Shown here one piece after another: positions 1 to 53,040 of a stretch of DNA of 59,024 nt (position 1 is its first letter; every line of letters starts with the position of its first letter). The notes under the pieces are model-generated. The model was not told the origin of the DNA and did not search any database. It saw nothing but the letters and a program-made list of their open reading frames with translations. The position numbers and the translations under genes are program-made. This DNA comes from Escherichia phage Utah, in sequence record KY014601.1. One strand, written 5' to 3'.

Positions 1-224
1 GGTGCGCAGAGCCGCTTTCTCGGAAAATGGGCCGGATCTGCCATAGCCCCGCTTTGCGAAATCAATAACTTAGCCGAAAAACCGAATTTCTCCCGTAGGG
101 AGTCTCCAAATCGCGGTGGTGACGGGGGTGCGGGCGGAACGGCGCTTTAGCCCCGCAATCGGTTGATTGTATTACTGTTTTACCCGGTGGGCGGGTGCTG
201 ACCAAGTCCACGGCAGCAGTATCA

Positions 225-613: not shown

Positions 614-901
614 ATGCAGCACGATGAATGCCGTGAAACGTTGATGGATTTCAAACGACAATTACAGACACATTTGAAGGCGATTTTACGTCGTCAGGGG
701 GTCACACAGAGCGCGCTTGCGACGATGATCGGCGTACACCAGTCAAGATTAAGTTTCATGCTTAACAGTGACGCAGACAGAGTTTCGATCGATAAACTCA
801 TTGAAGCGATAGTGAAACTGGATGGCGTGTTTATGGTGAAAATCGGAGATCAAACAGACATAAATCGAGTGCGGTACAAGGAGTGCGAAGACAACGTTTG
901 A
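614..901 (+). CDS. XRE-family helix-turn-helix transcriptional regulator (Cro/CI-like)
   Basis: 95 aa; HTH segment QSALATMIGVHQSRLSFMLN typical of XRE/HTH_3 regulators; own promoter and terminator. Confidence 0.6.
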   Translation: MQHDECRETLMDFKRQLQTHLKAILRRQGVTQSALATMIGVHQSRLSFMLNSDADRVSIDKLIEAIVKLDGVFMVKIGDQTDINRVRYKECEDNV

Positions 902-912
902 CAGACAAAAAC

Positions 913-937
913 AAGGCCGGATTTCCCGGCCTTTTTA
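913..937. terminator. Bidirectional rho-independent terminator between convergent genes
   Basis: GGCCGG(915-920)-ATTTC-CCGGCC(926-931) followed by TTTTT; reverse strand also has a T-run after the stem. Confidence 0.6.
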
Positions 938-941
938 TCGA

Positions 942-3527
942 CTAAACTTCGTCTTCATCGTCAAACGGGTCTGGCTTTTTGCCGACCAGTTTTTCGACTT
1001 CTGCGTCATGCCGTTTTAACGTAGTCTGCACCCATGACGAGTTAAGTTTCCCCGCGTCATCGAATGCCCCTTTGACCCGCTTACGGACATAAACGCGGCC
1101 AGATTCGCCGCCAAATTTGACCACGCCGCCCGGCTTGAAGCCCAATTCCATAAGCATGTTTTTCAGGCGGTTCGTCTTCGGCATTTCCACGTCTGTCATT
1201 TCGAGGAATGCGTTTTTCAGGGACGGCACGAAGATGACGTCGCGGTGTACGCCCGGCGTCGTTCCGTCACGAAGCATTTGTGCGATTGCGCCTTCCACGC
1301 CATCGTCAGACGCGTCGGCCATGACCGCGAATGCTTCGGTGTCCTGCGGTGCGTGTCCTTTGGCATCGAAATCCTTTCCGATCTCCCAATCGAGGAACCA
1401 CTTTTTGATAGCAGGTGCGTGGTTTTCGATTGCCCGGTACACGTTTTTGAAGAAGCGCGCGCGTTCAGTCTTCGACCCGTAAACCCGCTCCATGTCCAGA
1501 TGATTTTCTGCCTGCGTTGACACCACCAGATAACGACGCTGGTTTTCATCGAGTGGCAATGCGTTGAAGTGGTTGGTGAACATCATTTTGCTGCTGGTGT
1601 TCACTACTTCCTTCGGCTTGCGGCCCTTTGGCTCAATCTGGAAGCGGTCGTTTGTGATGAATTCCTTCTGGCGTTCCACCGCGCTGTACCTATCGCCTTT
1701 GTCGTAGATCTCTTCCACGATTTTCAGGATGTGGCCCTCGGCCCAATCGCTGAAACGGCCATTCATCACGGTGTTTGACACATAGCCCACGTTCGACGCG
1801 CCGAGCATCCGCGACATGATGATGCCGAGCGTCGTTTTACCAGAACCATGCGCACCACGGATCAGAAGCGAGTAGTTGATGCGTTTCGTTGGGTGCTGAA
1901 TAACCCACGCCATCCAGTCCAGAACATAGCGGCGTTCCTTCTCGTTCGGGAAAAGCACGATGAAGAAGTCTTTGATGATCTCCAGCGCCTTTTTGTCGTA
2001 CGGAGAAAGGTCAGTCGCGGCCTCCGGAATGGATTCAGGGTCAAAAGAGTTCAGCCACGTACGCCCACGGTCGTCAATAAAGAATTCCGGCCCGATCACC
2101 CCCTCTTTCGGCTTCCACACAGATTCCGGCATGTCACCGTGCATCGCCGGGTAGTACATCGCGTCCCAAACGATAGGAACCGGGCGGACTACCGACGCAT
2201 AGTGGACAGGCTTGAAGGCTTCTTCCTCAAACACGCATTTTTTCGCAAAAGCGACGTCGAAAGCGCCTTTTGTGATGTAATCGCCCGTGGTTTTTTCGAT
2301 AAAACTGTCATTTGCCTTCGAGAAAACGAAGTTTTTCAGCCACTGCGGAGTCTCTTTTGACCCGTAATCGAAGCCCAAAAGCTCCCTTTTGTCACCAGCA
2401 GTGAGGCGGAAGTTGTTGATCCTGCGGTATGCTTCGGCCGCAATCTGGACGATGGCCTTGCGGGTAAGCCCGAAAATCTGCGCTTTTTTGAATGATTCGG
2501 CCCACGCATTCCAGTCATTCGCCTCGGTACACTCGGCGAAAGCCTCGCGGTACTCGATGGCGCGTTCTTCCTGCTCGGCTTTCTCGATGTCCTGCACTTC
2601 TTTGATGATGGTGCCGAGCGTGATCAGTCGAGTCGAGTTGTGCGCGAAGCCCTTATCCCACTTGTATTCGAAATCACCTTCGTCGAAGTTGTGTGCCTGC
2701 ATGGCCCATTCGCGGGCAATGGCCTTCGCCTCGTCCTGATCGCGGCAGGAAATTTGCAGCGCGGCCAGTACGGTGATGTAGTTCTCGTAATCTTCCGGGT
2801 TCGGGTATTTCAGGACGATGTCGCGCAGTTCATCGTACGTGCCGTCCCACTTTTTGACGTCAGACAGCGCGGCCCAATCGTCATCGTCTGCCGAACCGAT
2901 AGACTCATAACCGTTCATTGGCCGTTTGACCATTGTCCAGCCCAAGTCCTTCGCGTATCGGTCGAATTCGGCGGCGATCTCGCGAGCGGTATCGAGGCTG
3001 ATCTCTTCGAGGTCAAGGTCGGCGGCGTTGTTCAGCGGATTCTCGCCATCAATCCAGTAATAGTCGCGCTTGGTGTCCGGGTGGATACCGTACGCAACGA
3101 ACTGCTGGCCGTCGGCGAGGATTTCAACTGCATGGCGCTGGCCGAAGTCGTCTTCCCACACGCCGGATTTCACTTTGGCGAACGGGTTTTCGGTTCGGTA
3201 CAGGTAGAGTTTCTTCGGCTCCCGGCCGATACGACATGGCGCTGCACCGACGTTCTCGGCGATCCAGTCTGCCATGTGCGCCACGGCGTCTTCATCGTAA
3301 ACGTCGATGTCAACCGCCGGGGTGTATTTGGTCAGAATCCCGATGCCGTTATTCGTATAGCGTTTCGCCCAACGCTGGATCTGCTCCTTATCATTGATTG
3401 TTCGTTCCCAATCTTCACCGATAGGGCGTTTGCCCGCACCCTTCTTATCGGCGTCCGGGGCGTAGATAGGTACGATGGTGTACCCATTCCCCCAAAGCGT
3501 TTCGCCGTACTCTTGCCAGTAGTTCAT
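942..3527 (-). CDS. Bifunctional primase-polymerase (PrimPol N-terminus) fused to D5/SF3-type helicase
   Basis: 861 aa; N-terminal PrimPol-like region (TIVPIYAPDADKKGAGKRPIG..., VDIDVYDED acidic motif); C-terminal Walker A GAHGSGKTT; acidic tail ...DDEDEV. Confidence 0.8.
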   Translation of the reverse strand: MNYWQEYGETLWGNGYTIVPIYAPDADKKGAGKRPIGEDWERTINDKEQIQRWAKRYTNNGIGILTKYTPAVDIDVYDEDAVAHMADWIAENVGAAPCRIGREPKKLYLYRTENPFAKVKSGVWEDDFGQRHAVEILADGQQFVAYGIHPDTKRDYYWIDGENPLNNAADLDLEEISLDTAREIAAEFDRYAKDLGWTMVKRPMNGYESIGSADDDDWAALSDVKKWDGTYDELRDIVLKYPNPEDYENYITVLAALQISCRDQDEAKAIAREWAMQAHNFDEGDFEYKWDKGFAHNSTRLITLGTIIKEVQDIEKAEQEERAIEYREAFAECTEANDWNAWAESFKKAQIFGLTRKAIVQIAAEAYRRINNFRLTAGDKRELLGFDYGSKETPQWLKNFVFSKANDSFIEKTTGDYITKGAFDVAFAKKCVFEEEAFKPVHYASVVRPVPIVWDAMYYPAMHGDMPESVWKPKEGVIGPEFFIDDRGRTWLNSFDPESIPEAATDLSPYDKKALEIIKDFFIVLFPNEKERRYVLDWMAWVIQHPTKRINYSLLIRGAHGSGKTTLGIIMSRMLGASNVGYVSNTVMNGRFSDWAEGHILKIVEEIYDKGDRYSAVERQKEFITNDRFQIEPKGRKPKEVVNTSSKMMFTNHFNALPLDENQRRYLVVSTQAENHLDMERVYGSKTERARFFKNVYRAIENHAPAIKKWFLDWEIGKDFDAKGHAPQDTEAFAVMADASDDGVEGAIAQMLRDGTTPGVHRDVIFVPSLKNAFLEMTDVEMPKTNRLKNMLMELGFKPGGVVKFGGESGRVYVRKRVKGAFDDAGKLNSSWVQTTLKRHDAEVEKLVGKKPDPFDDEDEV

Positions 3528-3805
3528 TCAAGGATTTCCCCTGTTTCGCTGTCCGTTTTGATCCATGAAGGGTTAGTCAGCCAATGCGGACGGATGCCGC
3601 AGTGAGGGACAGCTTTGCAAACTTTTTCGGCCACGCTGCTCGTTACGTTGTTCTGCACGGCCCATAACAATGTCGGGTAACTGATCTTCGCTGCCTTCGC
3701 CAGTTCGGCCATTCTGGCGTTCGGGTCTACCTCCAAAGCCGCTTGCATCATGAGAAATTTGACCCGCATCCGGTCGTCGTTTAAAGCCCAATCTGGAAAT
3801 CGCAT
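3524..3805 (-). CDS. Small putative DNA-binding protein (HTH-like), first gene of leftward primase operon
   Basis: 93 aa; segment MAELAKAAKISYPTLLWAVQNN resembles an HTH; 4-bp overlap with primase-helicase start; promoter immediately upstream. Confidence 0.4.
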   Translation of the reverse strand: MRFPDWALNDDRMRVKFLMMQAALEVDPNARMAELAKAAKISYPTLLWAVQNNVTSSVAEKVCKAVPHCGIRPHWLTNPSWIKTDSETGEILE

Positions 3806-3847
3806 AGTGATGCCCTCGCGTAATGTGCGCGTGTTATAGATTTGCGG

Positions 3848-3876
3848 ATATTATATCCGGGCTTGACATCTGTCAA
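3848..3876 (-). promoter_or_regulatory. Leftward sigma70-like promoter (TTGACA-17-TAATAT) embedded in two palindromes
   Basis: Minus strand: TTGACA (3871-3876), 17-nt spacer, TAATAT (3848-3853); plus-strand palindromes GGATAT-T-ATATCC (3846-3858) and TTGACA-TC-TGTCAA (3863-3876) overlap -10 and -35. Confidence 0.55.
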
Positions 3877-3890
3877 GTTGGCCAGTTATT

Positions 3891-3941
3891 CGGGTACCAA
3901 AGGCGCTTTATGTCCGGAAAACAAAGGGCTTGCGGTACCCG
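3891..3941. promoter_or_regulatory. 8-bp inverted repeat CGGGTACC ... GGTACCCG, candidate operator in divergent control region
   Basis: CGGGTACC at 3891-3898 and GGTACCCG at 3934-3941, 35 bp apart. Confidence 0.3.
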
Positions 3942-3965
3942 AATAAAAAATTTCTAAAAAAGTGT

Positions 3966-3995
3966 TTGACAGTGATTCGGCGTTTGGGCCATACT
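3966..3995 (+). promoter_or_regulatory. Candidate rightward promoter for the long plus-strand operon
   Basis: TTGACA 3966-3971, then weak -10 CATACT about 18 nt downstream; ATG 4048 with GGAG RBS. Confidence 0.3.
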
Positions 3996-4047
3996 TCATC
4001 CCGTCAACACGACACGACCTTTTAAACACTTAACGGAGTAGAAAATT

Positions 4048-4464
4048 ATGTCTGGTATCTTCGAACAACTGCTGGCTGAACAACAAAAAACCAACACCCT
4101 GCTGGAAGGCGTTCTGGCAGCACTGAAAGGCGGCGCGGTGAACACTTCCGCTGACGCTGGTAGCGAAACTACTGAAAAAACCACCACCACCAAAGGCGGT
4201 GCTAAGGGCGGCGCGAAAGGCGGTGCAGGTAAAACCGAAACTAAAGCGGTCAAGCCTAAACACACCAAAGACGAAGTAGTCGCGGCTGTCGTTGCGGTTA
4301 AAGACGCGTTCGGCGCGCCGGAAGCCAAGAAAATCACCGCACACTTCGGCCTCGCCAAAGTCGCGGAAGCGAAGGAAGAACACTTCGACGAAATCGTCGA
4401 AATGTGTGAAGCCAAACTGGCTGAAAAAGATGAAGGCGGTAACGGCGAAGAAGACGACGTTTAA
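4048..4464 (+). CDS. Hypothetical Ala/Lys/Gly-rich protein with acidic C-terminal tail
   Basis: 138 aa; KGGAKGGAKGGAGK low-complexity segment; ends ...GNGEEDDV; good RBS. Confidence 0.5.
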   Translation: MSGIFEQLLAEQQKTNTLLEGVLAALKGGAVNTSADAGSETTEKTTTTKGGAKGGAKGGAGKTETKAVKPKHTKDEVVAAVVAVKDAFGAPEAKKITAHFGLAKVAEAKEEHFDEIVEMCEAKLAEKDEGGNGEEDDV

Positions 4465-4525
4465 TCTTTCGCCCCGCATCGGCTCCCTTCGGGGGGCCGT
4501 TTTTCACACCAACGGAGAGGCAATT

Positions 4526-4855
4526 GTGACCAGCATTACTTTCACCAACGTAGCAACATCCGGCGGCGCAGTTCTCGCGCGCACTTGGGCGGAGTTTCGT
4601 TTTCAAATCGGTGATCGCGATGTGCTGTTCAGAGTTACTTCACCTGTTTCGAAACACGAAGCGCCGCTGCTCGTAACCCATGCTGCATCGGGCTATCGAG
4701 TGTGCGACGTCTGGTGGGACGACGTGGCGAAGACTCGCTTTAACGCAGGCCGCAATAATTACAGCGGGGCAGGCGCTAGGGCATTGGTAGCGACGATTGA
4801 GCGAGTCGGCGAACACCGATTCCTCAATGCGATAAAGGCGTATCCGAATGAGTAG
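4526..4855 (+). CDS. Hypothetical protein (GTG start)
   Basis: GTG at 4526 preceded by GGAGAGG RBS; longer ATG-initiated ORF (4292) would overlap previous gene by 170 nt and span a terminator-like hairpin. Confidence 0.4.
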   Translation: MTSITFTNVATSGGAVLARTWAEFRFQIGDRDVLFRVTSPVSKHEAPLLVTHAASGYRVCDVWWDDVAKTRFNAGRNNYSGAGARALVATIERVGEHRFLNAIKAYPNE

Positions 4856-6185
4856 TAAGTCACTGTTAGTCCGCATCATGCGGGAATTCGGCGGTGGCGG
4901 CCACTCAATCTTCGCGCCTTCTGCGTCAGCGCGTTGGATCGCATGTTCTGGAAGCCTGATAGCCGGGCTTTTCGAGCATGACGAAACCATCTACGAGGCG
5001 GCGGAAGGCACGGTGGCCCACGGAATCGCCGAACAATGGCTGCGAACGGATGTCCGGCCAACCCATTTAATCGGTACGGTCGAGACGATCACGGAAGGCG
5101 GTGTCAGCCATGACATCCCCATTACTCGGTCAATGCTCGACTCGGTTCAGGAGTACGTTGACTGGTGCCGATTTGAAGAGGGTGAAATGTTCACGGAAAT
5201 CCGGGTCTGGTTTACCGACCTGATGCCGCGAGCGAACCCGGATGAACCTGACGAAGACCCGATCGAGTTTGTCGCTCAGGGCGGAACGGCGGATAATATC
5301 ATCATCCGCGACCGAACCTTGATCGTGACCGACCTGAAATACGGGACTGGCGTTCAGGTTTTCGCGGAAGGGAACCCGCAGGCGCTACTTTACGCGTACG
5401 GTGCGTACCGCGCTTTCTCGGATGAATACGAGTTTGACCGTATTGTCATCCGGATCGCGCAGCCGAGGCTCGACCATTTCGATACGTGGGAAATCACGAT
5501 TGACGAATTGTTAGAGTTCGCGGAGTATGCCCGGGAGCGAATTGCAGCGGCATGGAGCCTTACCGCGCCGCGCCGCGCATCCCTGAAAGGGTGTCGTTTT
5601 TGCCGGGCAGCACATAACTGCGCAGCGATAGCGTACATGATGGAATGCGCAGTGGGCGGGGATGTGGAATTCCTTGAAGCTGAATTCGGGGAGGAAGAAA
5701 TGTCAGTATTGCGTGATGCGCTGGCGCAGGAGTATAAATTCCGGCGTGCGCAGTTCGGGAACCTGACAACCGAGCAGATGGCGAAGATCCTGCCATACCG
5801 CAAGGTGGTCGAAAACTGGTTCTCGCGCCTTGACTTCGAACTGGAACGCCGCGCAATGAACGGCGAGAAGGTACCGGGTCAAAAGCTGGTGGAGTCGCGG
5901 ACAAACCGCAAATTCGCCAACGAGAAAGATGCGATCGCGCTGTTCAAGTTCCTCGATATCGAAGAGGACAAGTACATCGAGCGCAAACTGCGTACCCCGG
6001 CGCAGATGGAAGAAGTGCTCAGGGATGAATTGGGCGTGTCCCGGGCTGGCGCGCCGAACATCATCGCGGGGATCGTCTACAAGCCGGAAGGCAAGCCTAC
6101 ACTGGCACCGCTTACCGATAAGCGGCCACCACTGGACGGCAAGTATTCCGGGGCGTGGGACGACGAAGATGATGACGAAGTGTAA
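4848..6185 (+). CDS. PD-(D/E)XK nuclease with Cas4/RecB-like Fe-S cysteine cluster (DUF2800-like)
   Basis: 445 aa; N-terminal Cys in WIACSGS plus C-terminal CRFCRAAHNC; DxK-type motif IVTDLKYG; acidic tail ...WDDEDDDEV; position next to SSB and PolA. Confidence 0.65.
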   Translation: MSSKSLLVRIMREFGGGGHSIFAPSASARWIACSGSLIAGLFEHDETIYEAAEGTVAHGIAEQWLRTDVRPTHLIGTVETITEGGVSHDIPITRSMLDSVQEYVDWCRFEEGEMFTEIRVWFTDLMPRANPDEPDEDPIEFVAQGGTADNIIIRDRTLIVTDLKYGTGVQVFAEGNPQALLYAYGAYRAFSDEYEFDRIVIRIAQPRLDHFDTWEITIDELLEFAEYARERIAAAWSLTAPRRASLKGCRFCRAAHNCAAIAYMMECAVGGDVEFLEAEFGEEEMSVLRDALAQEYKFRRAQFGNLTTEQMAKILPYRKVVENWFSRLDFELERRAMNGEKVPGQKLVESRTNRKFANEKDAIALFKFLDIEEDKYIERKLRTPAQMEEVLRDELGVSRAGAPNIIAGIVYKPEGKPTLAPLTDKRPPLDGKYSGAWDDEDDDEV

Positions 6186-6239
6186 ACCCGTAAAACCGTA
6201 GAAAGTAAACCCGTAAAACAGTAAACCGAGGATATTAAG

Positions 6240-6836
6240 ATGGCCGAGAAATTAGTCCCTGCGAAAAAAGTCAAGAATGGCGTGCTGTACAAATCTGGTC
6301 ACATCAAGATTTCTAACGTACGTGCTTCTTACCCGCACCTCGATAAGCCGTACGGCGGTGAAGACGGCGGCGAGCCGAAATACTCGCTGACGCTTTTGAT
6401 GCCGAAAGACAGCCACGGCGAGATCGAGAAAATCATCCGTGAGCAGATCGAAGTCACCAAGAAGAACCACAAGACAGGCGCGCTGAAAGTCGCCCCGTCC
6501 ATGTTGTTCATCAAAGACGGTGATACCGATTTTCCGGATAAGCCGGAATGCGAAGGGATGTGGGTTATCTCCGCACGCGAAAGCAAACGCCCGGATGTGT
6601 ATAACATCGAGCGCGAAGAGTTGACTACCTCTTCCGAAATTCTGGAAGAGATCTACGGTGGTTGTTGGGTGTCGGTTGTCATCCGTCCGTGGTCGCAGGA
6701 AAACAAATTCGGCAAACGCGTTAACGCCAACCTGATTTCCGTTCTGAAACGCAAAGACGACGAGCCGTTCGGTGAAGGTCGTGTGGACACGTCCGACGCG
6801 TGGGATGAAGACGAAGATTGGGAAGACGAAGTGTAA
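6240..6836 (+). CDS. Single-stranded DNA-binding protein-like (phage SSB, DUF2815-like)
   Basis: 198 aa; position between nuclease and DNA polymerase; long acidic C-terminal tail ...DTSDAWDEDEDWEDEV as in SSBs. Confidence 0.5.
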   Translation: MAEKLVPAKKVKNGVLYKSGHIKISNVRASYPHLDKPYGGEDGGEPKYSLTLLMPKDSHGEIEKIIREQIEVTKKNHKTGALKVAPSMLFIKDGDTDFPDKPECEGMWVISARESKRPDVYNIEREELTTSSEILEEIYGGCWVSVVIRPWSQENKFGKRVNANLISVLKRKDDEPFGEGRVDTSDAWDEDEDWEDEV

Positions 6837-6861
6837 TGTACGCCCTCGGGCGGTAATACAA

Positions 6862-6886
6862 GGCCCGCCGCGTGCGGGCTTTTTTC
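6862..6886 (+). terminator. Rho-independent terminator/attenuator after SSB-like gene
   Basis: GCCCGC-CGCGT-GCGGGC followed by TTTTTT (6880-6885). Confidence 0.55.
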
Positions 6887-6902
6887 ATACAGGAGCGTTA
6901 AC

Positions 6903-8942
6903 GTGACCGATTGCATTAATCTGGACTATGAATCCCGAAGCCGGGTGAACCTTAAAACGAACGGATTCGACCGATATTCGAACGACGAATCGACTAAAAT
7001 TCTGATGGGCGCATGGTCTATCAATGGCGGAGCGGTGCAGCACATCGACCTTCACCGAGGGAAGAAGTTGCCCGGCGAACTGCGTGAAGCGCTGGAAGAC
7101 CCGGCCGTCGAGAAGTGGGCCTTTAACGCGCAGTTCGAACGCGTAATGACCCGCCGGGTGCTCGGCATCAAGACGCCGTATAAATCGTGGCGCTGTACGA
7201 TGGCGCTGGCGTACATGCTCGGCTTTGCTGGCGACCTTCTGGCCGTCGGCACGCAGATCGGCTTGCCGGAAGAGAAACTGAAAGACCCGGAAGGCAAGCG
7301 CCTGATCGACCTGTTCAGCAAGCCGCAGCGTGTCACGAAGAAAAACCCGTTTGAGTGGCGCAATGAAGCGACCGACCCGGAAGACTGGTGGCACTTCTGC
7401 AAATATAACGTGCGGGACGTTGAAACCGAACTGGCGATTAAAGCCCGCCTGATGCGGTACCCGGTTCTGGATGCCGAATGGGACATGTACGCGCTGGATC
7501 AGTTCATCAACGATACAGGCGTGATGATTGACCGCGAATTCGCGTACTCGGCGCTGGCGCTCGCAGAGGCGCGCAAACCGCAGATTATCGAAGAAATGGC
7601 CGACATCACTGGCCTGAACAACCCCAATTCCCCGGCGCAGTTAACACCGTGGCTCAAAGAGCGCGGCTATCCGTTCAGCGACCTTCGCAGTGACACCGTC
7701 AACAAGGTCATTCGCGAAGCCGATGAAAACGGCGTTGACCCGGATGCGATCCGCGTGCTGCGGATGCGCCTGAATAGCGCGAAAAACTCCCTGTCAAAAT
7801 ATCAGACCATGATTGACGCGGCTGGCGAAGATGGCCGATTCCGCTTCTCGCTGCAATTCGCCGGGGCAAGCCGCACGAACCGTTGGGCTGGCCGCCGTAT
7901 TCAGACTCAAAACCTGCCGAGAACGCCGAAGCTGATCGAGGACGTGACCGACCTGTCCATCGTTAACAAGATGATCCACCAGCGCGACCTTGATGCGTTG
8001 ACGCTGTATGTGGGCGAGCCGATGGACGCGCTGGTGGGCTGCATTCGCTCCGCCTTCATCCCGACGCCGGGCCACAAGTTCATCGTTGCCGACCTGTCGT
8101 CCATCGAATCCGTGGTCATCGGGTGGCTGACAAACTGCAAATGGTTCATGGACACGCTGGCGGCCAAGCACGACCTTTACCGTTCATTCGCGGCTCACTG
8201 GCTGCACCTGCCGTACGAAGAAACGAAGCCACACCGCCCGAAAGCCAAACCTGCTACCCTCGGCGCGGGCTATCGCCTCGGCGGCGGCCACATGGACGAG
8301 AATGGCAAGAAGACCGGACTGTGGGGCTACGCCGAAAACATGGGCGTACACATGACGCAGAAAGAGGCAGAAGAGTCGGTACAGGCGTTCCGCGACCTTT
8401 GCCCGGAAATTGTGCGCGCATGGTATGACCTCGAAAACGCGGTATTCAAGGTTATCCGTACCCGTCAGGCCGTCGTATGGGGCTGTCTGATCATCGAATA
8501 CACAAAACCTTTCCTGACCATCCGTCTGCCGTCTGGCCGCAAAATGTATTACTTCCGTCCGCGTCTGGTCGAGCGCCAGATGACCGTTCAGAAAGGGCCG
8601 AAGAAGGGTGAGAAGTACACAAAGACCAACTTCCAGTACGAAGGCAAGGTGGAAGGAAGCGGCACCAAGTGGGGCAAGATTTACAGCCACGGCGGTAAGC
8701 TGGTGGAAAACATCGTTCAGGCGCTGGCGCGCGACGTGCTCGCCGAAGGTCTGAAAAAGGCGCACCGCATGGGCTTCCGGATCGTCATGCACATCCACGA
8801 TGAAATCGTAACCGAAGTGCCGGAAGACAGCCCGCTGACCGTGGACGACCTTATTTCCTGCATGGCGGCCGAACTACCGTGGGCCGAAGGGCTACCGCTT
8901 GGCGCTGCCGGGTGGGAAGGCTATTTCTACCGTAAGGATTAA
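6903..8942 (+). CDS. Family A DNA polymerase with 3'-5' exonuclease domain
   Basis: 679 aa; Exo I-like DYESRS near N-terminus; motif A-like DLSSIE; motif C HDE in MHIHDEIVTEV; GTG start. Confidence 0.85.
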   Translation: MTDCINLDYESRSRVNLKTNGFDRYSNDESTKILMGAWSINGGAVQHIDLHRGKKLPGELREALEDPAVEKWAFNAQFERVMTRRVLGIKTPYKSWRCTMALAYMLGFAGDLLAVGTQIGLPEEKLKDPEGKRLIDLFSKPQRVTKKNPFEWRNEATDPEDWWHFCKYNVRDVETELAIKARLMRYPVLDAEWDMYALDQFINDTGVMIDREFAYSALALAEARKPQIIEEMADITGLNNPNSPAQLTPWLKERGYPFSDLRSDTVNKVIREADENGVDPDAIRVLRMRLNSAKNSLSKYQTMIDAAGEDGRFRFSLQFAGASRTNRWAGRRIQTQNLPRTPKLIEDVTDLSIVNKMIHQRDLDALTLYVGEPMDALVGCIRSAFIPTPGHKFIVADLSSIESVVIGWLTNCKWFMDTLAAKHDLYRSFAAHWLHLPYEETKPHRPKAKPATLGAGYRLGGGHMDENGKKTGLWGYAENMGVHMTQKEAEESVQAFRDLCPEIVRAWYDLENAVFKVIRTRQAVVWGCLIIEYTKPFLTIRLPSGRKMYYFRPRLVERQMTVQKGPKKGEKYTKTNFQYEGKVEGSGTKWGKIYSHGGKLVENIVQALARDVLAEGLKKAHRMGFRIVMHIHDEIVTEVPEDSPLTVDDLISCMAAELPWAEGLPLGAAGWEGYFYRKD

Positions 8943-8943
8943 C

Positions 8944-9231
8944 ATGGCCGAGCCGATAATCAGAGAATCGAAGGTCGAAAAGCGCTGCTGCGAATACGCG
9001 CAGGGGCGCGGGTGGTGGGTGTCAAAATTCACCTCCCCCGGCAAAAAAGCCGTCCCGGATCGCGTGCTGATCCGTGGCGGCATTGTGCTTTTTATCGAAT
9101 TCAAACGCCCCGGCGAAGAACCAACGGCGCAGCAGTATCACCGCCACAAGGAAATGCGCAAGGCCGGGGCTAACGTGACATGGGTGGACAATTTTGCAGA
9201 CTTTAAAAACTACATTATCGCCTTTGAGTAG
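8944..9231 (+). CDS. VRR-NUC domain nuclease
   Basis: About 96 aa from ATG 8944 (MAEPIIRESKVEK...); conserved E/K pattern IVLFIEFKRPGEEPTAQQ typical of VRR-NUC. Confidence 0.6.
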   Translation: MAEPIIRESKVEKRCCEYAQGRGWWVSKFTSPGKKAVPDRVLIRGGIVLFIEFKRPGEEPTAQQYHRHKEMRKAGANVTWVDNFADFKNYIIAFE

Positions 9232-10753
9232 AGCGCTCGCGTACTGCCTGCGGACGGTTAAACTGAACCGCAGCGACATGCACGACTATCAGGACGAAGG
9301 CGTCCAGTTCATCAAAGACCATCCGTACTGCGGCATGTTCGTAGACCTCGGCTTGGGTAAGACTGTCATGACCGGGACGGCCATGCTCGACCTGATCGCG
9401 GACGGCGAAATCAACAAAGTCCTCGTCGTCGCGCCGAAGCGCGTGGCCCGTACCGGGTGGCCGACGGAATTCGACGAGTGGGGCCACCTGTGTTTCTACA
9501 AGATGTCGGTCATCGCCGGGAACGCCAAAGAGCGCGCAGCGGCCGCGAGTAAGGACTGCCATTTTTACACGATCAGCGTGGATAACATTGCGTGGCTGTG
9601 TGAGCACTTCAAGACGAAATGGCCGTTCGACGCCGTGGTGCTGGACGAGTCGAGCATGTTCAAATCCCACACCTCGCAGCGCTTCAAACTGCTGCGCCGG
9701 GTGCGGAAGTACATCAAACGGATCGTCGAGTTGACGGCCACGCCTGCGGCCGAAGGGTACATGGGTATCTTCTCGCAAATTTACCTGCTGGACGAAGGCG
9801 AGCGCTTTGGCTCCACCATCGGCGGTTATCAGGAAAACTACTTCACGCAGAACCGCTACAACTTCAAATGGAAACTTCGCCCCGGTGCGGAAGACGAGAT
9901 TATTCGGAAGATTTCTGATATATGTTTAGTCATGAAAGCGGAAGACTACCTTGACATGCACGAACCGAATTTCGTTCCTGTCCCGGTCGAGTTAGACGGG
10001 GAGACGGCGGAGCGGTACCGCATGATGGAGGAAGAGAGCCTCGTCGAGATTATGCCGGACGATTTCGATGAACATCTGGATGACCCAATCGTGATCGAAG
10101 CGGAGCAGGCCGCGTCTTTGCAGTCGAAGTTATTGCAGATGTGCTCAGGCTTCATCTACGACACGAAAATCGTTGGCATAACGCAAGACGACAAGGTCAT
10201 TAAGCAGAAGGACACGTACAGGCTGCACGACCTGAAATTCGATGCACTGGAAGAACTGCTGGAAACCACGCTGGCCGATAAAAACGTGCTGATCGCCTAT
10301 CACTTCAAGCCGACCCTCGAACGACTGAAAGAGCGGTTTAAAGATCTGGTGGTCATGGATGATGACGGTAAGTGCATCAAGAAGTGGAACGCCGGAAAGA
10401 TTCGACTGCTGGCCGCGCACCCTCAGTCAGCGGGACACGGTTTAAACCTCCAGCATGGGGGCCACGTCATCGTCTACATCGACAATCCGTGGTCGCTCGA
10501 ACGCTTCCTGCAATTCAACGGCAGACTTCACCGTCAGGGCCAGAAGTACCCGGTTACTATCTACCAGTTCAAAGCCATGCTGCGAACACCGAACGGGCTT
10601 CTGGCCGAGACAGCGGACGACGTCGTGATTCAGGCGCTGAACGACAAAGAGGACGTGCAGGACGCGTTCTTCGAACTGCTCGAACGCATCAAAGGGCGCA
10701 TCAAACGCCGCAAGAAATCGAAAAATAAAGGGGTATGGGATGACGAAGAGTAA
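9194..10753 (+). CDS. SNF2-family (SF2) ATP-dependent helicase
   Basis: Motif I DLGLGKT, motif II VVLDESSMFK, C-terminal helicase motifs HPQSAGHGLNLQ and NGRLHRQGQ; start ambiguous (ATG 9194 overlaps VRR-NUC; alternative ATG 9278). Confidence 0.8.
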   Translation: MQTLKTTLSPLSRALAYCLRTVKLNRSDMHDYQDEGVQFIKDHPYCGMFVDLGLGKTVMTGTAMLDLIADGEINKVLVVAPKRVARTGWPTEFDEWGHLCFYKMSVIAGNAKERAAAASKDCHFYTISVDNIAWLCEHFKTKWPFDAVVLDESSMFKSHTSQRFKLLRRVRKYIKRIVELTATPAAEGYMGIFSQIYLLDEGERFGSTIGGYQENYFTQNRYNFKWKLRPGAEDEIIRKISDICLVMKAEDYLDMHEPNFVPVPVELDGETAERYRMMEEESLVEIMPDDFDEHLDDPIVIEAEQAASLQSKLLQMCSGFIYDTKIVGITQDDKVIKQKDTYRLHDLKFDALEELLETTLADKNVLIAYHFKPTLERLKERFKDLVVMDDDGKCIKKWNAGKIRLLAAHPQSAGHGLNLQHGGHVIVYIDNPWSLERFLQFNGRLHRQGQKYPVTIYQFKAMLRTPNGLLAETADDVVIQALNDKEDVQDAFFELLERIKGRIKRRKKSKNKGVWDDEE

Positions 10754-11309
10754 TGCGCCACTGGCAACCCGGAATCGCCGCTCTAATGCGCCGGACGCCG
10801 ATACCGAAGCGATGATCTTTCAGGGCTGCAACATCACGCAACTGGCGAAGCTGTTTCGCATGGAGCGCCGGGACATCACGCCGAAAATCATGGATGTCCC
10901 GCCTGTCGGCGAGCGTGGCGGGTACCCGATCTACGCGGTTCACGAAGTGGCCCCGTACCTCGTTAAGCCGCTGTACGATGTCGAGACGTACCTGCGCCGC
11001 ATGAATTTCAAGGATCTGCCGAAGGAGTTGTCGAAAGAGTTTTGGGCCGGGCAGCGTGCAAAGCAGGACTTCGACATCAAAGCGGGAAACCTGTGGGAAA
11101 CCGAGAAGGTGATCGAGCACTTCGGCGAGGCGGTGAAGGTGCTGCGCATGTCGATGTTGCTCATTCCCGACACGCTGGCGCGTCAGGCCGGACTCAGCGA
11201 GCCGCAACGTCAGGTCATCACGTCATCCATTGACGCCATGCTGAACGACCTGTCGAGCGCGCTGATCGATAAGTTCAACGGCGACGAGGTGGATGACGAT
11301 GAAGTTTAA
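10740..11309 (+). CDS. Terminase small subunit (Nu1-like) with acidic C-terminus
   Basis: Immediately upstream of and overlapping TerL; HTH-like N-region ITQLAKLFRMERRDITPKI resembling lambda Nu1 N-terminus; ends ...DEVDDDEV; possible alternative start at 10812. Confidence 0.55.
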   Translation: MTKSNAPLATRNRRSNAPDADTEAMIFQGCNITQLAKLFRMERRDITPKIMDVPPVGERGGYPIYAVHEVAPYLVKPLYDVETYLRRMNFKDLPKELSKEFWAGQRAKQDFDIKAGNLWETEKVIEHFGEAVKVLRMSMLLIPDTLARQAGLSEPQRQVITSSIDAMLNDLSSALIDKFNGDEVDDDEV

Positions 11310-13384: not shown

Positions 13385-13639
13385 ATGACACCAGAAGAAT
13401 GCCGCGCGCAATATCGCCTCATGCTCAAAGAAGCGATGGATGCGTACCACCAATTAAACCTCGGCGGCTCGGTGCGCGTCGTGGTGGATCAGAACAGTGA
13501 ACGCGTGGAATATACCGCAGCGAACCGACAAAGCCTATGGGCCTACATCGTTCGACTGCAAAACGCGATTAATTCGGACAACCCTTGCGCGGCCTTCATG
13601 GGCCTACCAAGTTCACCAGCAGGATTCTTATTCCCATGA
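13385..13639 (+). CDS. Head-tail joining protein (lambda gpW-like)
   Basis: 84 aa; RVVVDQNSERVEYTAANRQSLWAYIVRLQ and C-terminal PAGF resemble lambda gpW; sits between TerL and portal. Confidence 0.6.
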   Translation: MTPEECRAQYRLMLKEAMDAYHQLNLGGSVRVVVDQNSERVEYTAANRQSLWAYIVRLQNAINSDNPCAAFMGLPSSPAGFLFP

Positions 13640-16628: not shown

Positions 16629-16642
16629 TAGGGGATCTTCGG

Positions 16643-17062: not shown

Positions 17063-17074
17063 GGAGCAGCGCAA

Positions 17075-18139: not shown

Positions 18140-18200
18140 TAACCCGTAATTCAAACCTACGATCCGCCTGTACCGGGCGGGTCGCTTTGAGGAAAGAGCC

Positions 18201-26229: not shown

Positions 26230-26234
26230 TAACA

Positions 26235-27923: not shown

Positions 27924-27932
27924 GAGGGCATT

Positions 27933-28751: not shown

Positions 28752-28762
28752 GGAGAATCGCT

Positions 28763-33852: not shown

Positions 33853-33861
33853 GGGGATCAC

Positions 33862-41822: not shown

Positions 41823-42284
41823 TTAAATGGTCGGGTGGGTAATAATCACAGTACGTTCACCCTCGATTGTCTGGTGGTACCGCAGTGAGGACACCAGATG
41901 ATCGAGGTTATTGAAGACCGGGATATTCAGCCGCTTCGCCTCTTCCACCTCAGCGCGGGTACCGGAACTGCGCATCGCATCTTCGCCAATCAGCAGAACC
42001 GCGTCACAACGGCGCATCAATTCCATCGTGCATTCCAGCCAATATTCGTCCGGTATCTCGCCCTCTGTCTTGTGCTCGAAGTGGGCCGTGTTCAGGTGCG
42101 GAGTAACCGGGAACATCTTGTGGACGTAAAGTTGATCGACAACCGACACGGCCGTCTCTTCGGCTTTCAGGATGTTGACCGTCGTCGGAACGGTGCAGCC
42201 CGAACCGATGATGTACGGGCGGTACGGCCCGGCCAGATAGATCATGACGGGCTTGGCCGCCGGGTTACACATATTCACGTTCAT
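41823..42284 (-). CDS. Nucleoside 2'-deoxyribosyltransferase / DNPH1-like protein
   Basis: 153 aa; VMIYLAGPY N-terminal motif and LLIGEDAMRSSGTRAEVEEA resembling the catalytic-Glu region of deoxyribosyltransferase-fold enzymes. Confidence 0.5.
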   Translation of the reverse strand: MNVNMCNPAAKPVMIYLAGPYRPYIIGSGCTVPTTVNILKAEETAVSVVDQLYVHKMFPVTPHLNTAHFEHKTEGEIPDEYWLECTMELMRRCDAVLLIGEDAMRSSGTRAEVEEAKRLNIPVFNNLDHLVSSLRYHQTIEGERTVIITHPTI

Positions 42285-42565
42285 ATTAAGCCTCGGTTAT
42301 ATTCGTCCACGTATTTTTCATTTTCAGGAGATCGGTCTACCTGATTAATCTCGCTGAACTCGCAGGAAATAATATCCCCACTAGGCAGGCGCACCCGCCA
42401 AAAAACATCCTCTTCACGCGGCCCGGTGCGTTCCCATTCGAGCACGGTTCCGTAGTATTTATGCCCGTTGAATCGGTCAGTGAAATGCACGGAGTCGCCT
42501 TTAATCGGCCAGCCCGGTTTTATCTTGGCACGGTATTTCCGTTTTATAGCCTCAACGTCGATCAT
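42281..42565 (-). CDS. Hypothetical protein
   Basis: 94 aa; operon context, 4-nt overlap with downstream gene. Confidence 0.45.
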   Translation of the reverse strand: MIDVEAIKRKYRAKIKPGWPIKGDSVHFTDRFNGHKYYGTVLEWERTGPREEDVFWRVRLPSGDIISCEFSEINQVDRSPENEKYVDEYNRGLI

Positions 42566-42640
42566 ACTTCATCCTCCTCAAAGTCTTCGTCAAAAAGGTC
42601 GGACTGGCCGCCGGAAAAGCTGACGACAAGCGGCGCTTTG

Positions 42641-43354
42641 TTAGTTGGCATCGGTTGAGTCCTCGCATAATGGTATGAAGTCCTTCGGGCCGTCGCCTGA
42701 ACCGGGGAAGCGCCGGAAGACCATTTCGTCTTCAATGGTCAGTTTATCCTTGCTGTTCCCGCGACGATAGAAGTCGGCCATGCCGCTCCCGTACGAACGG
42801 TCAATCCCGGCACCGTACGGATCTTGCGGGCAAAGTTCCAGCGCCAGCACTTCTCGCCAGTCAGGACGATCGATGCGGCTGACGATGCGATGGTTATTCG
42901 ACACCCGGCAGTACCCCGAGGCTATCAGCGTTTCCGCCAGCCGGGCCTGTTCCTTGCCGCGCATCGTTTTCGCGCGCTTGACATCCTCTTTCCTTGCCCG
43001 GGCGAAATACTCCCGCGAGAAGCGGCTACCGACGTTCTCCGCGAAGATGCGCTGGTCTTTGATGACCATGCCCCATTTCCGTCGGCTACCTTCTTCCACG
43101 TAGCGAATGGCCCCGGCGTAGCGCAGCAGCATGGCATCGGTCAGGCGGGCATTCTTCGGGTCTTTGGCTTTCCACCAGCCGTACACCTCCACCATGCGGG
43201 CCATCGCCTTGTCGCAGTACCACAACTCGGCGTGGCTGGTGGGCGAGTATGTTGGGTAAGACTTTGCGCCGCCGTCAAACGCCCGGTAGCAGTACCAGAC
43301 CCCGCCGCTGTACTGGAAGTGCGGTATCTTGTGATGCTCTTTCATCGTAGCCAT
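42641..43354 (-). CDS. Hypothetical protein
   Basis: 237 aa; Trp/Tyr-rich N-region; no motif recognised. Confidence 0.5.
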   Translation of the reverse strand: MATMKEHHKIPHFQYSGGVWYCYRAFDGGAKSYPTYSPTSHAELWYCDKAMARMVEVYGWWKAKDPKNARLTDAMLLRYAGAIRYVEEGSRRKWGMVIKDQRIFAENVGSRFSREYFARARKEDVKRAKTMRGKEQARLAETLIASGYCRVSNNHRIVSRIDRPDWREVLALELCPQDPYGAGIDRSYGSGMADFYRRGNSKDKLTIEDEMVFRRFPGSGDGPKDFIPLCEDSTDAN

Positions 43355-44474: not shown

Positions 44475-44987
44475 CTAAGACTTTCTTTTCCGGGCGTGCT
44501 CCAGTCGATCACCGTGGCCCTTCTCGACCATGAAATCGCGGGTCTGTTTGTGCAGGTTGGCGATCGTTTCCTTCGTTTTCCACCAGCGCGCCACTATCCC
44601 TTCGCGCACTTCCCGTTCGCGGAACAGGACGGCCAAGTCATTCGCGGTGATGTCATACCCTTCGCACGCGGCCAAAACTCCGGCCTTGAATTCGTAGAAC
44701 AGGCTTTGGATCTCCCGGAATTCGGCCTCGGTTACGATCTCGATATTGACCGTTTTCCCTTCACCGATGTCGTCCTCGGTAAACAGGCACCCGGCTTCGC
44801 CAATGGCGCGGCCATCGTCCTTCCGGTAGCGCGTATTCCCTACGATGATCTGCGTCGGCGTGGTGCGCTCTACGCGTCGTTTCACGGCGAAGGTTACTTC
44901 CGGGCTGTACCCGATACGGATGCTGTTACGCTCCAGTGTCATGTCGCCAGTTTCGAGGTGTCCGAATCTCAATTTTTTATCGGCCAT
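44475..44987 (-). CDS. Hypothetical protein
   Basis: 170 aa; last gene of leftward unit 3. Confidence 0.5.
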   Translation of the reverse strand: MADKKLRFGHLETGDMTLERNSIRIGYSPEVTFAVKRRVERTTPTQIIVGNTRYRKDDGRAIGEAGCLFTEDDIGEGKTVNIEIVTEAEFREIQSLFYEFKAGVLAACEGYDITANDLAVLFREREVREGIVARWWKTKETIANLHKQTRDFMVEKGHGDRLEHARKRKS

Positions 44988-50437: not shown

Positions 50438-51526
50438 TTAAACCTCGTCGTCGTCTTCTTCGTCGTCTTCTTCGTCGTTCAGCGTTCCGGTGTACTCGAC
50501 TACCTGCCCGGCCTCGTCCAGCACGCTGATCACCGCACGCAGGGACTTATCGAGTTGGAACAGGTTAGCCATCATGGTCAGGAACTGGCCGCCGTCGGTG
50601 CCGTAGCGTTCGAGCGTGGCGTCGTAGTTCGCATCAACGTCGGCCTCGCCGATGTGGATACCGGACAGGATGGCTTTGTCGGACAGGCGGAAGTACACGG
50701 TGTCGATGCCCGGGCATTGCGTATCGACTTCGAGATCCAGCGCGCGGACAGTCCAGTGACGTGACAGCAGGTCAACCACCGACTCGTCTTTGAAGATGTC
50801 CGTGTCCTTCATCTTGACGTCGTCGCCATCGTCGTGTTTCAGGTGGATAAACGCATCGCCCTTGATGCCGTCCTGCTGGCCGAGAACCGCGCGCTGCATT
50901 AACTGGCGCAGCTCATACTCGCTCGGCAGGAGGTGTTCGACGGGCCATGTGCCGAGCGCGGTACGGATCAGCGCGCTGCACTCTTCTGCCGTCTTCGCGC
51001 TCGACGTGAACACGTACACGAACGGGGCGGACAGGATGACGTTGACGCGGGAAGGGCGGATAGGCGCGTGTTTCAGCATTTCCGCTTCCACGTCGTCCTT
51101 CATCTGCGCCCAATCCTTGCGGTTCGGCTCCCAACCCTCGATCTCTTTCTCCCGCAACGCGGCCATGCGCTTCACGACTTCATTTCGTACGCTGACGCCG
51201 GGCAACACACGTTCGCGTTTCTCGATCTGGAAGACGATGGCGTTTGTCCCGGGGATGGCGAGGGCGAATTTGCTGTCAACCTCTTCGCCGTACGCTGCAA
51301 AGCCCATTGTCTTGTAAGACGCCTCCGGCGGATCTGACACTTCATGCTTTTCGAGTGCATCGCTTAACGCTCCTTTAGCGAAAGACGTCACCGCCTCTTC
51401 GTCAACGTTCGGCAGATTCAGGATCAGGCGGTGCAGCGGCTTGACCTTCTCGTTACCGTCGTTGGCCGCGTCATACAGCGCGCCGAGGTGCAGGATAATG
51501 GCTTTCTCATAACCCTTGATTTTCAT
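50438..51526 (-). CDS. RdgC-like recombination-associated protein with long acidic C-terminal tail
   Basis: 362 aa; region SALIRTALGTWPVEHLLPSE resembles E. coli RdgC (LALLRKSLGSLPVVPLS); ends ...NDEEDDEEDDDEV. Confidence 0.55.
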   Translation of the reverse strand: MKIKGYEKAIILHLGALYDAANDGNEKVKPLHRLILNLPNVDEEAVTSFAKGALSDALEKHEVSDPPEASYKTMGFAAYGEEVDSKFALAIPGTNAIVFQIEKRERVLPGVSVRNEVVKRMAALREKEIEGWEPNRKDWAQMKDDVEAEMLKHAPIRPSRVNVILSAPFVYVFTSSAKTAEECSALIRTALGTWPVEHLLPSEYELRQLMQRAVLGQQDGIKGDAFIHLKHDDGDDVKMKDTDIFKDESVVDLLSRHWTVRALDLEVDTQCPGIDTVYFRLSDKAILSGIHIGEADVDANYDATLERYGTDGGQFLTMMANLFQLDKSLRAVISVLDEAGQVVEYTGTLNDEEDDEEDDDEV

Positions 51527-51869
51527 TCTCTATGGCTCCCAAGTTGATTAGATTGGCTGGTGCTCCGTGGTACATGGATTGCGCTGCATGGAACATCGCG
51601 GCGCGTAGTGCTTCTTTGGCCGCCCGAAGGCCCGCCATTGATTCAGCGTACTGGTCGCTGACCGTGTTATACGCCGCCTCGTCGTTGTCCAGCGTGGCGA
51701 GGTCGAGCATTTTGGTACTATGGGCCTGCACGTCGTCTTCCATGTCCTTGAAAAACGTCTCAAGGGCAGACAGTTTGCAGGTGATTTGGTCTAACCGGAC
51801 TTTGCGCAGTTCTTGGTACTGCACGCGAACGAATTCAATGCCTTCCACCAGCCACCTCCACGACGACAT
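51507..51869 (-). CDS. Hypothetical protein
   Basis: 120 aa. Confidence 0.45.
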   Translation of the reverse strand: MSSWRWLVEGIEFVRVQYQELRKVRLDQITCKLSALETFFKDMEDDVQAHSTKMLDLATLDNDEAAYNTVSDQYAESMAGLRAAKEALRAAMFHAAQSMYHGAPANLINLGAIENENQGL

Positions 51870-52170
51870 TCTGCACTTCCGGGCATGGCATATTCGTCAT
51901 GGCCCAATCCAGAAACTTCACGATGTACATGCGCATGGCCGCACATTCGTCCGCGCCACGGGCCTTGCCGTGCTTCGCGATGGCCGGGTCGCCGGACTGA
52001 TAGAAGGTCACGCGGTGATTCGTGGCCGACGACACCTTGATCCCGGTGTGCGTGGCATGGATGGTCACGCTGTAGATCCGCTCGATAGCGCGGAACGCCG
52101 GGACGACGTCGATGCGGCCTTTCGGGTGAATAGCGTTGTTCACCATCAACGCGGTATTAGTCGGCTGCAT
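51835..52170 (-). CDS. Hypothetical protein
   Basis: 111 aa. Confidence 0.45.
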   Translation of the reverse strand: MQPTNTALMVNNAIHPKGRIDVVPAFRAIERIYSVTIHATHTGIKVSSATNHRVTFYQSGDPAIAKHGKARGADECAAMRMYIVKFLDWAMTNMPCPEVQNVVVEVAGGRH

Positions 52171-52668: not shown

Positions 52669-53040
52669 TTAAACTTCGTCGTCGTCCGCGACGTCGGTGG
52701 CCGTACAGGTTACGACGGCCTGAATGAACATGCGGCCAGACGGGTAAGTCACCAGTGCGGATTCCATACTGAACCGTTGGCCGTGGTGTTTCATGGCGTT
52801 CCGGATGGAAGAATTAAGGCTGGCCCGCATCTTCGCTTTGAGGGCATTGGCCTCGTCCTGTACCTGCGAAAGCGTACGGTCAAGCGGGAGTTCTTGGGAC
52901 AGGGTGTACACGCCACCGACTTCCAGCGCAATGAGGTTCCCCACGACGCTGTACACGCGCACGCGTGACGGCAGTTCAACATCCGGCTCGGTCGTCATCA
53001 TTGCGCCAGTCAGTTCGGCCGGGCTTAGTTCTTTGCTCAT
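52669..53040 (-). CDS. Hypothetical early protein with acidic C-terminus, first gene of leftward unit 1
   Basis: 123 aa; ends ...TDVADDDEV; promoter 53083-53111 upstream. Confidence 0.5.
   Translation of the reverse strand: MSKELSPAELTGAMMTTEPDVELPSRVRVYSVVGNLIALEVGGVYTLSQELPLDRTLSQVQDEANALKAKMRASLNSSIRNAMKHHGQRFSMESALVTYPSGRMFIQAVVTCTATDVADDDEV

Follow-up and report, generated by a model that had tools for sequence, protein, structure and literature searches.

Replication module, absence of integration genes and shared acidic protein tails in the chi-like Escherichia phage Utah

Escherichia phage Utah (sequence record KY014601.1, whose whole length of 59,024 nucleotides is called the window below) carries a cluster of replication and recombination genes between positions 942 and 10,753, and the analysis presented here indicates that it is very probably a chi-like phage that possesses this module, lacks integration genes and behaves as a virulent phage. 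A preliminary description of the DNA had recognised six such genes, for a primase-helicase, a Cas4-like nuclease, a protein that binds single-stranded DNA (SSB), a family A polymerase, a VRR-NUC nuclease and an SNF2 helicase, and profile matches, motifs and solved relatives confirm all six (Table 1). The virulent lifestyle that it had proposed is supported by the lack of an integrase or recombinase domain in the profile scans, by the lack of an integrated copy in the collections searched and by the clear plaques published for Utah (PMC5374247). Neither the module nor the lytic habit of chi-like phages is new, both having been published between 2012 and 2017, the module in PMC4342425 and PMC5686142. 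The only item here for which we could not find a description in the literature is a pattern of acidic tails with a common tip, shared by nine proteins of replication, recombination, packaging and other functions.

The window is a complete chi-like genome of 59,024 bp and 56.42% G+C with a cos end at position 1, and its cos end, length and G+C equal the published values (PMC5374247); it holds no tRNA genes. Over its full length the module is 99.6% identical to that of the Salmonella phages KFS-SE1, SeWh-1 and SeZq-1, and 25 Chivirus-type records among the matches listed align to it with 95.8-99.6% identity and 100% coverage. The relatives belong to Chivirus, Casjensviridae, and the gene order of Utah is that of KFS-SE1. 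The Salmonella phages chi, iEPS5 and KFS-SE1 resemble Utah in length, GC, cos and gene order, with 96-99.6% nucleotide identity over the module, and are described as lytic; no difference of substance separates them. Utah itself has been described as a lytic, chi-like siphophage that infects flagellated cells only (PMC5374247).

The domain assignments of the module follow directly from this analysis. The primase-helicase matches Prim-Pol (PF09250, 2.4e-11), PriCT_2 (PF08707, 6.6e-6) and DUF5906 (PF19263, 2.4e-18), all above the curated cut-offs, as well as the DNA primase family phrog_1156 (9e-198); its Walker A motif is GAHGSGKT at residue 558, and it has a weak relative among solved primase chains. 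The Cas4-like nuclease matches DUF2800 (PF10926, 1.1e-70), the exonuclease family phrog_69 (6e-111) and, at the borderline, PDDEXK_1 (PF12705, 22.6 bits against a 22-bit cut-off). Its cysteines (Cys33 and C249-x2-C252-x5-C258) form the four-cysteine, Fe-S pattern of Cas4, and the RecB-type motifs D..DLK and QxxxY can be read. Since the N-terminal cysteine, the CX2CX5C array and the RecB-type motifs occur together, the label is fair, and the protein is predicted to be a Cas4-like nuclease with a putative Fe-S cluster; a sequence search of solved structures with it returned no relative at E<=1. In RefSeq relatives its start lies 30 nt further downstream. The SSB matches Enc34_ssDNA-bd (PF10991, 7.7e-31) and the solved SSB of phage Enc34 (5odj, 1.4e-117), an orthologue with the fold of T7 gp2.5 and demonstrated binding of single-stranded DNA (PMC5686142).

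The polymerase matches DNA_pol_A (PF00476, 5.9e-13; 48.9 bits against a curated cut-off of 34.3), and its polymerase motifs A, B and C (DLSSIE, KAKPATLGAGY, HDE) and exonuclease motifs I-III (LDYES, NAQFE, YNVRD) are invariant among 14 relatives. Many streptococcal, staphylococcal and Paenibacillus phages also have relatives of this polymerase. The assignment of the 110-aa protein that follows it is carried by PDB and PHROG matches, not by Pfam: VRR_NUC (PF08774) does not match even at E<=10, and a 40%-identical orthologue has only a "faint" precomputed match to it. The protein belongs to the endonuclease family phrog_93 (4e-27) and aligns with the solved nucleases 4qbo (6.5e-11) and 4qbn (6.9e-8), including the catalytic motif D...ExK (vPDRv...EfK); we take these two to be the stand-alone VRR-NUC structures of Pennell et al. 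(2014). Its orthologue in Enc34 is annotated VRR-NUC, and a role as a VRR-NUC junction resolvase is probable. The SNF2 protein matches SNF2-rel_dom (PF00176, 4.3e-10; 39.6 bits against 24.9), Helicase_C (PF00271, 2.8e-5; 24.7 bits against 23.5) and phrog_62 (3e-158), and its start in RefSeq relatives is equivalent to position 9224. The module is completed by three small proteins (93, 138 and 109 aa) of unknown function. To call the set "self-sufficient", as the preliminary description did, is too strong, because no ligase, no 5' flap nuclease or RNase H for primer removal and no topoisomerase was detected.

The same analysis establishes the absence of the genes that would be expected for lysogeny. 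All 78 curated gene-like open reading frames (ORFs) went through a Pfam scan, and the ones lying beyond the structural and lysis block (10,740-41,822) through a PHROG scan too; the module proteins were scanned singly and the remaining ones as concatenated pseudo-proteins, and 36 alternative-frame (shadow) ORFs of at least 145 aa were scanned against Pfam as well. Integrase, resolvase/invertase, transposase, RecT, excisionase, KilA/antirepressor, ParA/B and protelomerase families were found by Pfam in none of the 78, and the 36 alternative-frame ORFs gave no match at all. The PHROG class "integration and excision" was represented, among the ORFs scanned, only by a weak similarity, confined to the helix-turn-helix (HTH), of a 95-aa protein. 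An integrase and a repressor spliced into a pseudo-protein as a positive control were both recovered (Phage_integrase 4.9e-19, HTH_3 2.6e-6). Moreover, tblastn of the regulator, Xis, Int and ParB of the temperate phage SS2019XI, discussed below, against the six frames of the window gave chance matches only, the best for the integrase having E 0.11. The preliminary description had seen no integrase, excisionase or CI-type repressor, and had proposed profile searches for integrase or recombinase domains in all ORFs; the scans, the tblastn search and the spiked control bear it out. Small excisionases can escape profiles, and the nearest things to a CI-type repressor or excisionase are the 95-aa protein, which has an HTH alone, and a weak candidate of 93 aa.

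Temperate relatives within the family provide a syntenic control for these negatives. A polymerase 52% identical to that of Utah is encoded on a 219.7-kb Pseudomonas aeruginosa contig together with the primase, DUF2800, SSB, VRR-NUC and SNF2 genes, in Utah's order, and after the SNF2 gene come a 221-aa HTH_3 protein, a pair of small ORFs and a tyrosine integrase, with bacterial genes beyond them. Phage vB_Pae-SS2019XI (Maxdohrnvirus, Casjensviridae), to which this prophage is 99% identical, has a regulator, an excisionase and an integrase annotated in its record between the helicase and the small terminase gene TerS; Burkholderia phage AH2 (Ahduovirus) has the regulator and excisionase at the same SNF2/TerS junction and its integrase elsewhere, as does an IMG/VR contig. 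Both phages are of the same family as Utah, with collinear genomes and an identical module order, and SS2019XI has 30 collinear proteins in common with it at 24-60% identity. Unlike Utah, both carry the HTH_3 regulator of about 220 aa and the excisionase at the SNF2/TerS junction, and both have an integrase. No trace of the SS2019XI cassette, or of the ParB-like gene of that phage, was found in any frame of the window. In Utah the SNF2 stop overlaps the TerS start by 14 nt, and the two genes abut in every relative whose polymerase is at least 54% identical. The absence of lysogeny genes from the window is therefore real at the very locus that holds them in relatives. Further, because the same module sits in an integrated Pseudomonas prophage, the replication genes say nothing about lifestyle.

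The check for prophage copies in host genomes, which had likewise been proposed, found none in E. coli genomes, plasmids or the contigs of public assemblies. Megablast of positions 1-25,000 and 34,025-59,024 against 5,426 complete E. coli genomes and 72,556 plasmid records gave no match. An exact-protein look-up in public assemblies returned 114 blocks for the 95-aa HTH protein and 275 for the capsid protein, with no contig above 200 kb; the contigs shown for these two proteins are all of 57.6-59.8 kb, and in 6 of the 10 listed for the HTH protein the right end is joined to the left exactly at the cos site. Such separate contigs of about 59 kb in isolate assemblies (GCA_004179675.1, GCA_005714495.1 and GCA_007584025.1 are examples) reflect either carriage with the isolate or contamination; of two such loci looked at, one has a contig that extends through the cos-joined junction. 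The plasmid records also bear on the idea of a plasmid prophage in the style of N15, P1 or SSU5, to which the cohesive ends, the phage's own replication genes and the ParB-like gene of a relative might point. Profile scans of the window turned up no domain of the ParA/ParB, protelomerase or plasmid Rep kind, nothing in it corresponds to the ParB-like protein of the relative, and none of the plasmids matched; this idea, already unlikely, appears extremely improbable.

Several points nevertheless weigh against a virulent phage without integration genes. About half of the genes to the right of 41.8 kb are of unknown function, and two small HTH-type proteins exist (Table 1). The BLAST searches of genomes and plasmids left out positions 25,001-34,024 (tail genes), and the bacterial genomes searched were those of E. 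coli only; a search with the primase against 100,044 species-representative genomes, which found no relatives, is a weak test that requires near-exact peptide words. Whole phage contigs of about 59 kb are present in many NCBI bacterial isolate assemblies and could reflect a carrier state. In the literature, the chi-like phages STm101 and STm118 have been called temperate on two grounds, turbid plaques on one strain and an "integrase (gp59)" with homology to SPN19 gp14 (PMC6631126), and seven "lysogenic genes", including an integrase, a serine recombinase, RecT, a transposase, KilA and a Cro/CI repressor, have been listed in STP11 and SEP13 (PMC9783114).

If these papers were right, Utah too could be a temperate phage with a cryptic integrase, and the turbid plaques, the integrase name and the gene list would all speak for it. 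The integrase of the chi-like phages goes back to a 111-aa protein, SPN19 gp14, which RefSeq now calls "hypothetical"; Salmonella phage 37 alone among database sources has the label "viral integrase family 4" for it. The protein has no Pfam match at E<=10, no homologue outside Chivirus and no similarity to the genuine family integrase of SS2019XI. An AlphaFold2 model of it is unusable (mean predicted local distance difference test, pLDDT, 46.9), and its 94 near-identical variants lie on more than 400 contigs, the longest of them 58.9-60.6 kb. By every test made here, this Chivirus-only orphan is not an integrase.

The remaining STP11 names fare no better. The "RecT" (86 aa), "transposase" (39 aa), "serine recombinase" (83 aa), "KilA" and "Cro/CI" (389 aa) proteins have copies in the window that are 89-100% identical, and none of these, at 39-389 aa, matches the family after which it is named; the labels are rejected for lack of profile support. 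They are unreliable because obvious genes are misnamed in the same record (OP535471), where the 4.3-kb tape-measure gene is a "siderophore-interacting protein", a 57-aa ORF the "major capsid protein", tail genes the "terminase large subunit" and "portal protein", and the primase "hypothetical". The annotation of OP535471 (Salmonella phage STP11) appears shifted or scrambled. Moreover, the accessible text of the two papers reports no isolated lysogen, and no contig longer than the phage was met in the look-ups. An integrating phage is thus very improbable and largely refuted. The two papers discouraged the use of chi-like phages in therapy and biocontrol over "lysogeny genes", and the practical value of the present work lies in the negative evidence that those labels fail profile searches, syntenic comparison and a survey of hundreds of public contigs.

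A less improbable alternative is a carrier state without integration, or pseudolysogeny, in flagellated hosts, with a small HTH protein that may delay lytic growth. It would explain the complete, cos-joined contigs of about 59 kb in the isolate assemblies, the chi-like phage met in a Salmonella DT104 sequencing project (Leavitt et al., PMC5374247) and the turbid plaques on one strain (PMC6631126); the two HTH proteins would fit it, and lytic deferment has been put forward for other flagellotropic phages (PMC9437464). However, the contigs could just as well stem from contaminated cultures or libraries, scans of the window showed no partition or plasmid-replication genes, small HTH regulators are common in virulent phages and the plaques of Utah are clear (PMC5374247). 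A carrier state is therefore considered unlikely, and virulent growth without integration genes is the reading kept here.

The 95-aa HTH protein and the 93-aa candidate regulator flank the primase-helicase gene. The 95-aa protein matches HTH_37 (1.5e-10), HTH_3 (4.5e-6), the HTH DNA binding protein family phrog_2339 (2.3e-24) and PDB entry 2a6c (1.4e-4), and its length is insufficient for the C-terminal domain of a CI-type repressor. In Enc34 and ASh-2020a the orthologue of the 93-aa protein bears the label transcriptional regulator, and in AH2 the label Cro; two putative regulators had already been mentioned for this region by Hendrix et al. (PMC4342425). The preliminary description had allowed for a short repressor missed by eye; a short Cro/C1-type HTH protein and a weaker candidate are present, and no CI-type repressor was found. 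In the 242-bp gap upstream of the 93-aa gene, two promoter-like matches to the consensus (TTGACA-17-TAATAT at 3876-3848 on the minus strand and TTGACA-18-CATACT at 3966-3995 on the plus strand) have perfect TTGACA boxes and face away from each other. To the left of the gap lie the small regulator and the primase-helicase, and to the right the nuclease, SSB, polymerase, VRR-NUC and SNF2 genes, unbroken into TerS.

From the protein families involved we infer an order of replication events and a division of labour. After injection the cos ends would anneal and be sealed by the host ligase. Divergent promoters near 3.85-4.0 kb would drive the small regulator and the primase-helicase leftward, and the nuclease, SSB, polymerase, VRR-NUC and SNF2 genes rightward, straight on into the terminase genes. 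The PrimPol/SF3 protein may open and prime the DNA, the proofreading polymerase would copy it and the gp2.5-type SSB would coat the single strands. Recombination-dependent concatemers could arise with the support of the Cas4-like exonuclease acting with the annealing SSB, of the SNF2 translocase and of an RdgC-like protein encoded outside the module, and VRR-NUC may trim branches ahead of cos cutting and packaging.

This set is reminiscent of that of T7 (gp5, gp4, gp2.5, gp6, gp3) in its proofreading family A polymerase, SSB/annealase of gp2.5 fold, single-polypeptide primase-helicase, exonuclease and junction resolvase. In function the parts would correspond to a T7-like replisome made of different protein families: PolA would be the counterpart of gp5 and the SSB that of gp2.5, with the AEP/SF3 protein in place of gp4, the Cas4-like nuclease in place of gp6 and VRR-NUC in place of gp3. 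Unlike T7, the primase-helicase is AEP/SF3 and not DnaG/SF4, the nuclease is Cas4-like and not FEN-like, and there is no ligase gene. The Hafnia/Enterobacter phage Enc34 (genus Enchivirus) has the primase, small regulator, hypothetical proteins, DUF2815 SSB, PolA, VRR-NUC, helicase and TerS in the same order, with an SSB 89% identical and a primase and polymerase about 72-75% identical to those of Utah.

Of the 78 proteins, nine have an acidic run and then [DE][DE]V at their C-terminus, against 0.16 expected from the proteome-wide frequency (P = 1.3e-13). They are the primase-helicase, the 138-aa protein, the Cas4-like nuclease, the SSB, TerS, the 97-aa DUF7443 protein at the position of lambda FI, a short ORF at 42562-42735, the RdgC-like protein and a DUF7609 protein; the SNF2 protein ends in ...WDDEE. 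All four valine codons are in use at these tips, and selection therefore acts on the protein. Another cause considered for the ...DEV ends, a Shine-Dalgarno sequence embedded there, is rejected in view of the four codons and of the several tails that precede gaps or terminators. The tip differs among relatives: orthologues end in ...DDL in SS2019XI, ...GL in AH2 and BcepNazgul-type phages and ...DEV in Enc34, and phage-wide tips of I, L, GL, PI/DI, EL or F stand in place of V; at least five different tips are each common to several proteins of one lineage. In a set of 50 non-redundant IMG/VR loci, SSB and TerS of one genome have the same last residue in 37 of 47 cases (12.9 expected), and primase and SSB in 33 of 43 (11.1 expected), the expectations coming from shuffling among genomes, which ignores shared ancestry. 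The agreement covers the primase, SSB, TerS, nuclease and FI-position protein.

Acidic tails with a hydrophobic tip on the SSB and the primase-helicase are a feature shared with T7, in which two proteins only, gp2.5 (...DGDF) and gp4 (...DTDF), carry them, as against nine in Utah; the T7 tails bind the polymerase (PMC12339929). A family-wide docking code, in which one phage receptor would read the tail tip and gather replication, recombination and packaging proteins in one place, is a tentative proposal that we hold at somewhat less than even confidence, and if true it would extend the two-protein system of T7. The best guess for the receptor is the OB groove of the SSB, because in the Enc34 crystal the SSB tail sits in that groove of a neighbouring molecule (PMC5686142). 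PolA is a poor candidate: an AlphaFold2 fusion of PolA, a 30-residue linker and the SSB tail, run with a genome-paired alignment of 15 sequences, predicted no docking (PolA pLDDT 86, predicted template modelling score 0.83; tail 24-34), and Serratia phage JS26, which has PolB (C-terminus ...EYEL) in place of PolA, keeps the tails. A literature search for earlier descriptions of shared tails in this phage family found only the Enc34 SSB tail. Through the co-varying tips it could become testable what holds a widespread phage replication module together and couples it to packaging.

The short ORF among the nine has its probable start at 42651 and would encode 29 aa, little beyond the acidic tail (MPTNKAPLVVSFSGGQSDLFDEDFEEDEV). 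It overlaps its neighbours at both ends, the ATG with the stop of the 237-aa gene upstream and its own stop with the start of the gene that follows, and annotations of relatives do not include it. Either a free tail peptide or a frameshift product could be its nature.

Table 1. Features of the phage Utah window discussed in the text, with the evidence for each.
Feature	Position	Strand	Basis and remarks
cos end, 12-nt 5' cohesive end GGTGCGCAGAGC	1..12	+	identical to overhang published for chi and Utah (PMC5374247, PMC4342425)
95-aa Cro/C1-type (XRE) HTH DNA-binding protein	614..901	+	Pfam, PHROG, PDB; just outside the module
GC-rich hairpin, terminator-like, between convergent HTH and primase genes	913..933		consensus scan only; 9-bp stem, then minus-strand T run
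Primase-helicase, 861 aa, AEP PrimPol, PriCT-2 and SF3/D5-type P-loop (DUF5906/VapE-like)	942..3527	-	Pfam, PHROG, motifs; C-terminus ...FDDEDEV
93-aa small protein, candidate regulator, upstream of primase	3524..3805	-	weak HTH_24/HTH_26 (E about 0.04); phrog_7401, unknown function
Divergent promoter-like pair in 242-bp gap 3806-4047	3848..3995		consensus matches only
138-aa protein of unknown function	4048..4464	+	phrog_7721, no Pfam match; C-terminus ...GEEDDV, acidic tail kept in orthologues
109-aa protein of unknown function	4526..4855	+	phrog_8318 on residues 80-187 of ORF 4292-4855; 109 aa in relatives' annotation
Predicted Cas4-like PD-(D/E)XK nuclease (DUF2800), 445 aa	4848..6185	+	Pfam, PHROG, four-Cys pattern; C-terminus ...DDEDDDEV
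T7 gp2.5-type single-stranded DNA-binding/annealing protein (SSB), 198 aa (DUF2815/Enc34 family)	6240..6836	+	Pfam, PDB match; tail ...DEDWEDEV
Family A DNA polymerase (PolA), 679 aa, 3'-5' exonuclease motifs, without 5' nuclease domain	6903..8942	+	Pfam, PHROG, motifs
VRR-NUC-type nuclease, 110 aa, probable junction resolvase	8899..9231	+	phrog_93 and PDB matches
SNF2-family helicase/translocase, 519 aa	9194..10753	+	Pfam, PHROG; C-terminus ...VWDDEE
Small terminase TerS (DUF1441)	10740..11309	+	DUF1441 1.4e-10; [DE][DE]V tail
DUF7443 protein, 97 aa	18201..18494		[DE][DE]V tail
Nucleoside 2-deoxyribosyltransferase-like protein	41823..42284	-	DUF7768 7e-7; phrog_355 3.6e-31
Short ORF	42562..42735	-	[DE][DE]V tail
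"Thymidylate synthase complementing protein" per PHROGs	44475..44987	-	no Pfam support
Dam-type methyltransferase, 228 aa	46532..47218	-	Pfam Dam N6-adenine methyltransferase 3e-29; phrog_111 DNA methyltransferase
RdgC-like protein	50438..51526	-	profile scans; [DE][DE]V tail
111-aa orphan protein (SPN19 gp14), origin of "integrase" label for chi-like phages	51835..52170	-	
DUF7609 protein	52669..53040	-	[DE][DE]V tail

Outside the module, the deoxyribosyltransferase-like, thymidylate synthase complementing and Dam-type proteins together hint at functions in nucleotide or DNA modification. The Dam-type protein is named "phosphoadenosine phosphosulfate (PAPS) reductase" in RefSeq relatives, a label whose origin seems to be a fused PHROG family. 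Mosaicism marks the early leftward operon, in that the 94-aa and 237-aa genes at 42281-43354 of Utah are replaced in KFS-SE1 (41276-42719) by a 300-aa "PAPS reductase" and a 185-aa gene. Finally, the head genes at 13385-18494 follow the order and families of lambda (gpA terminase, gpW, lambda-type portal, S49 protease, gpD and gpE).

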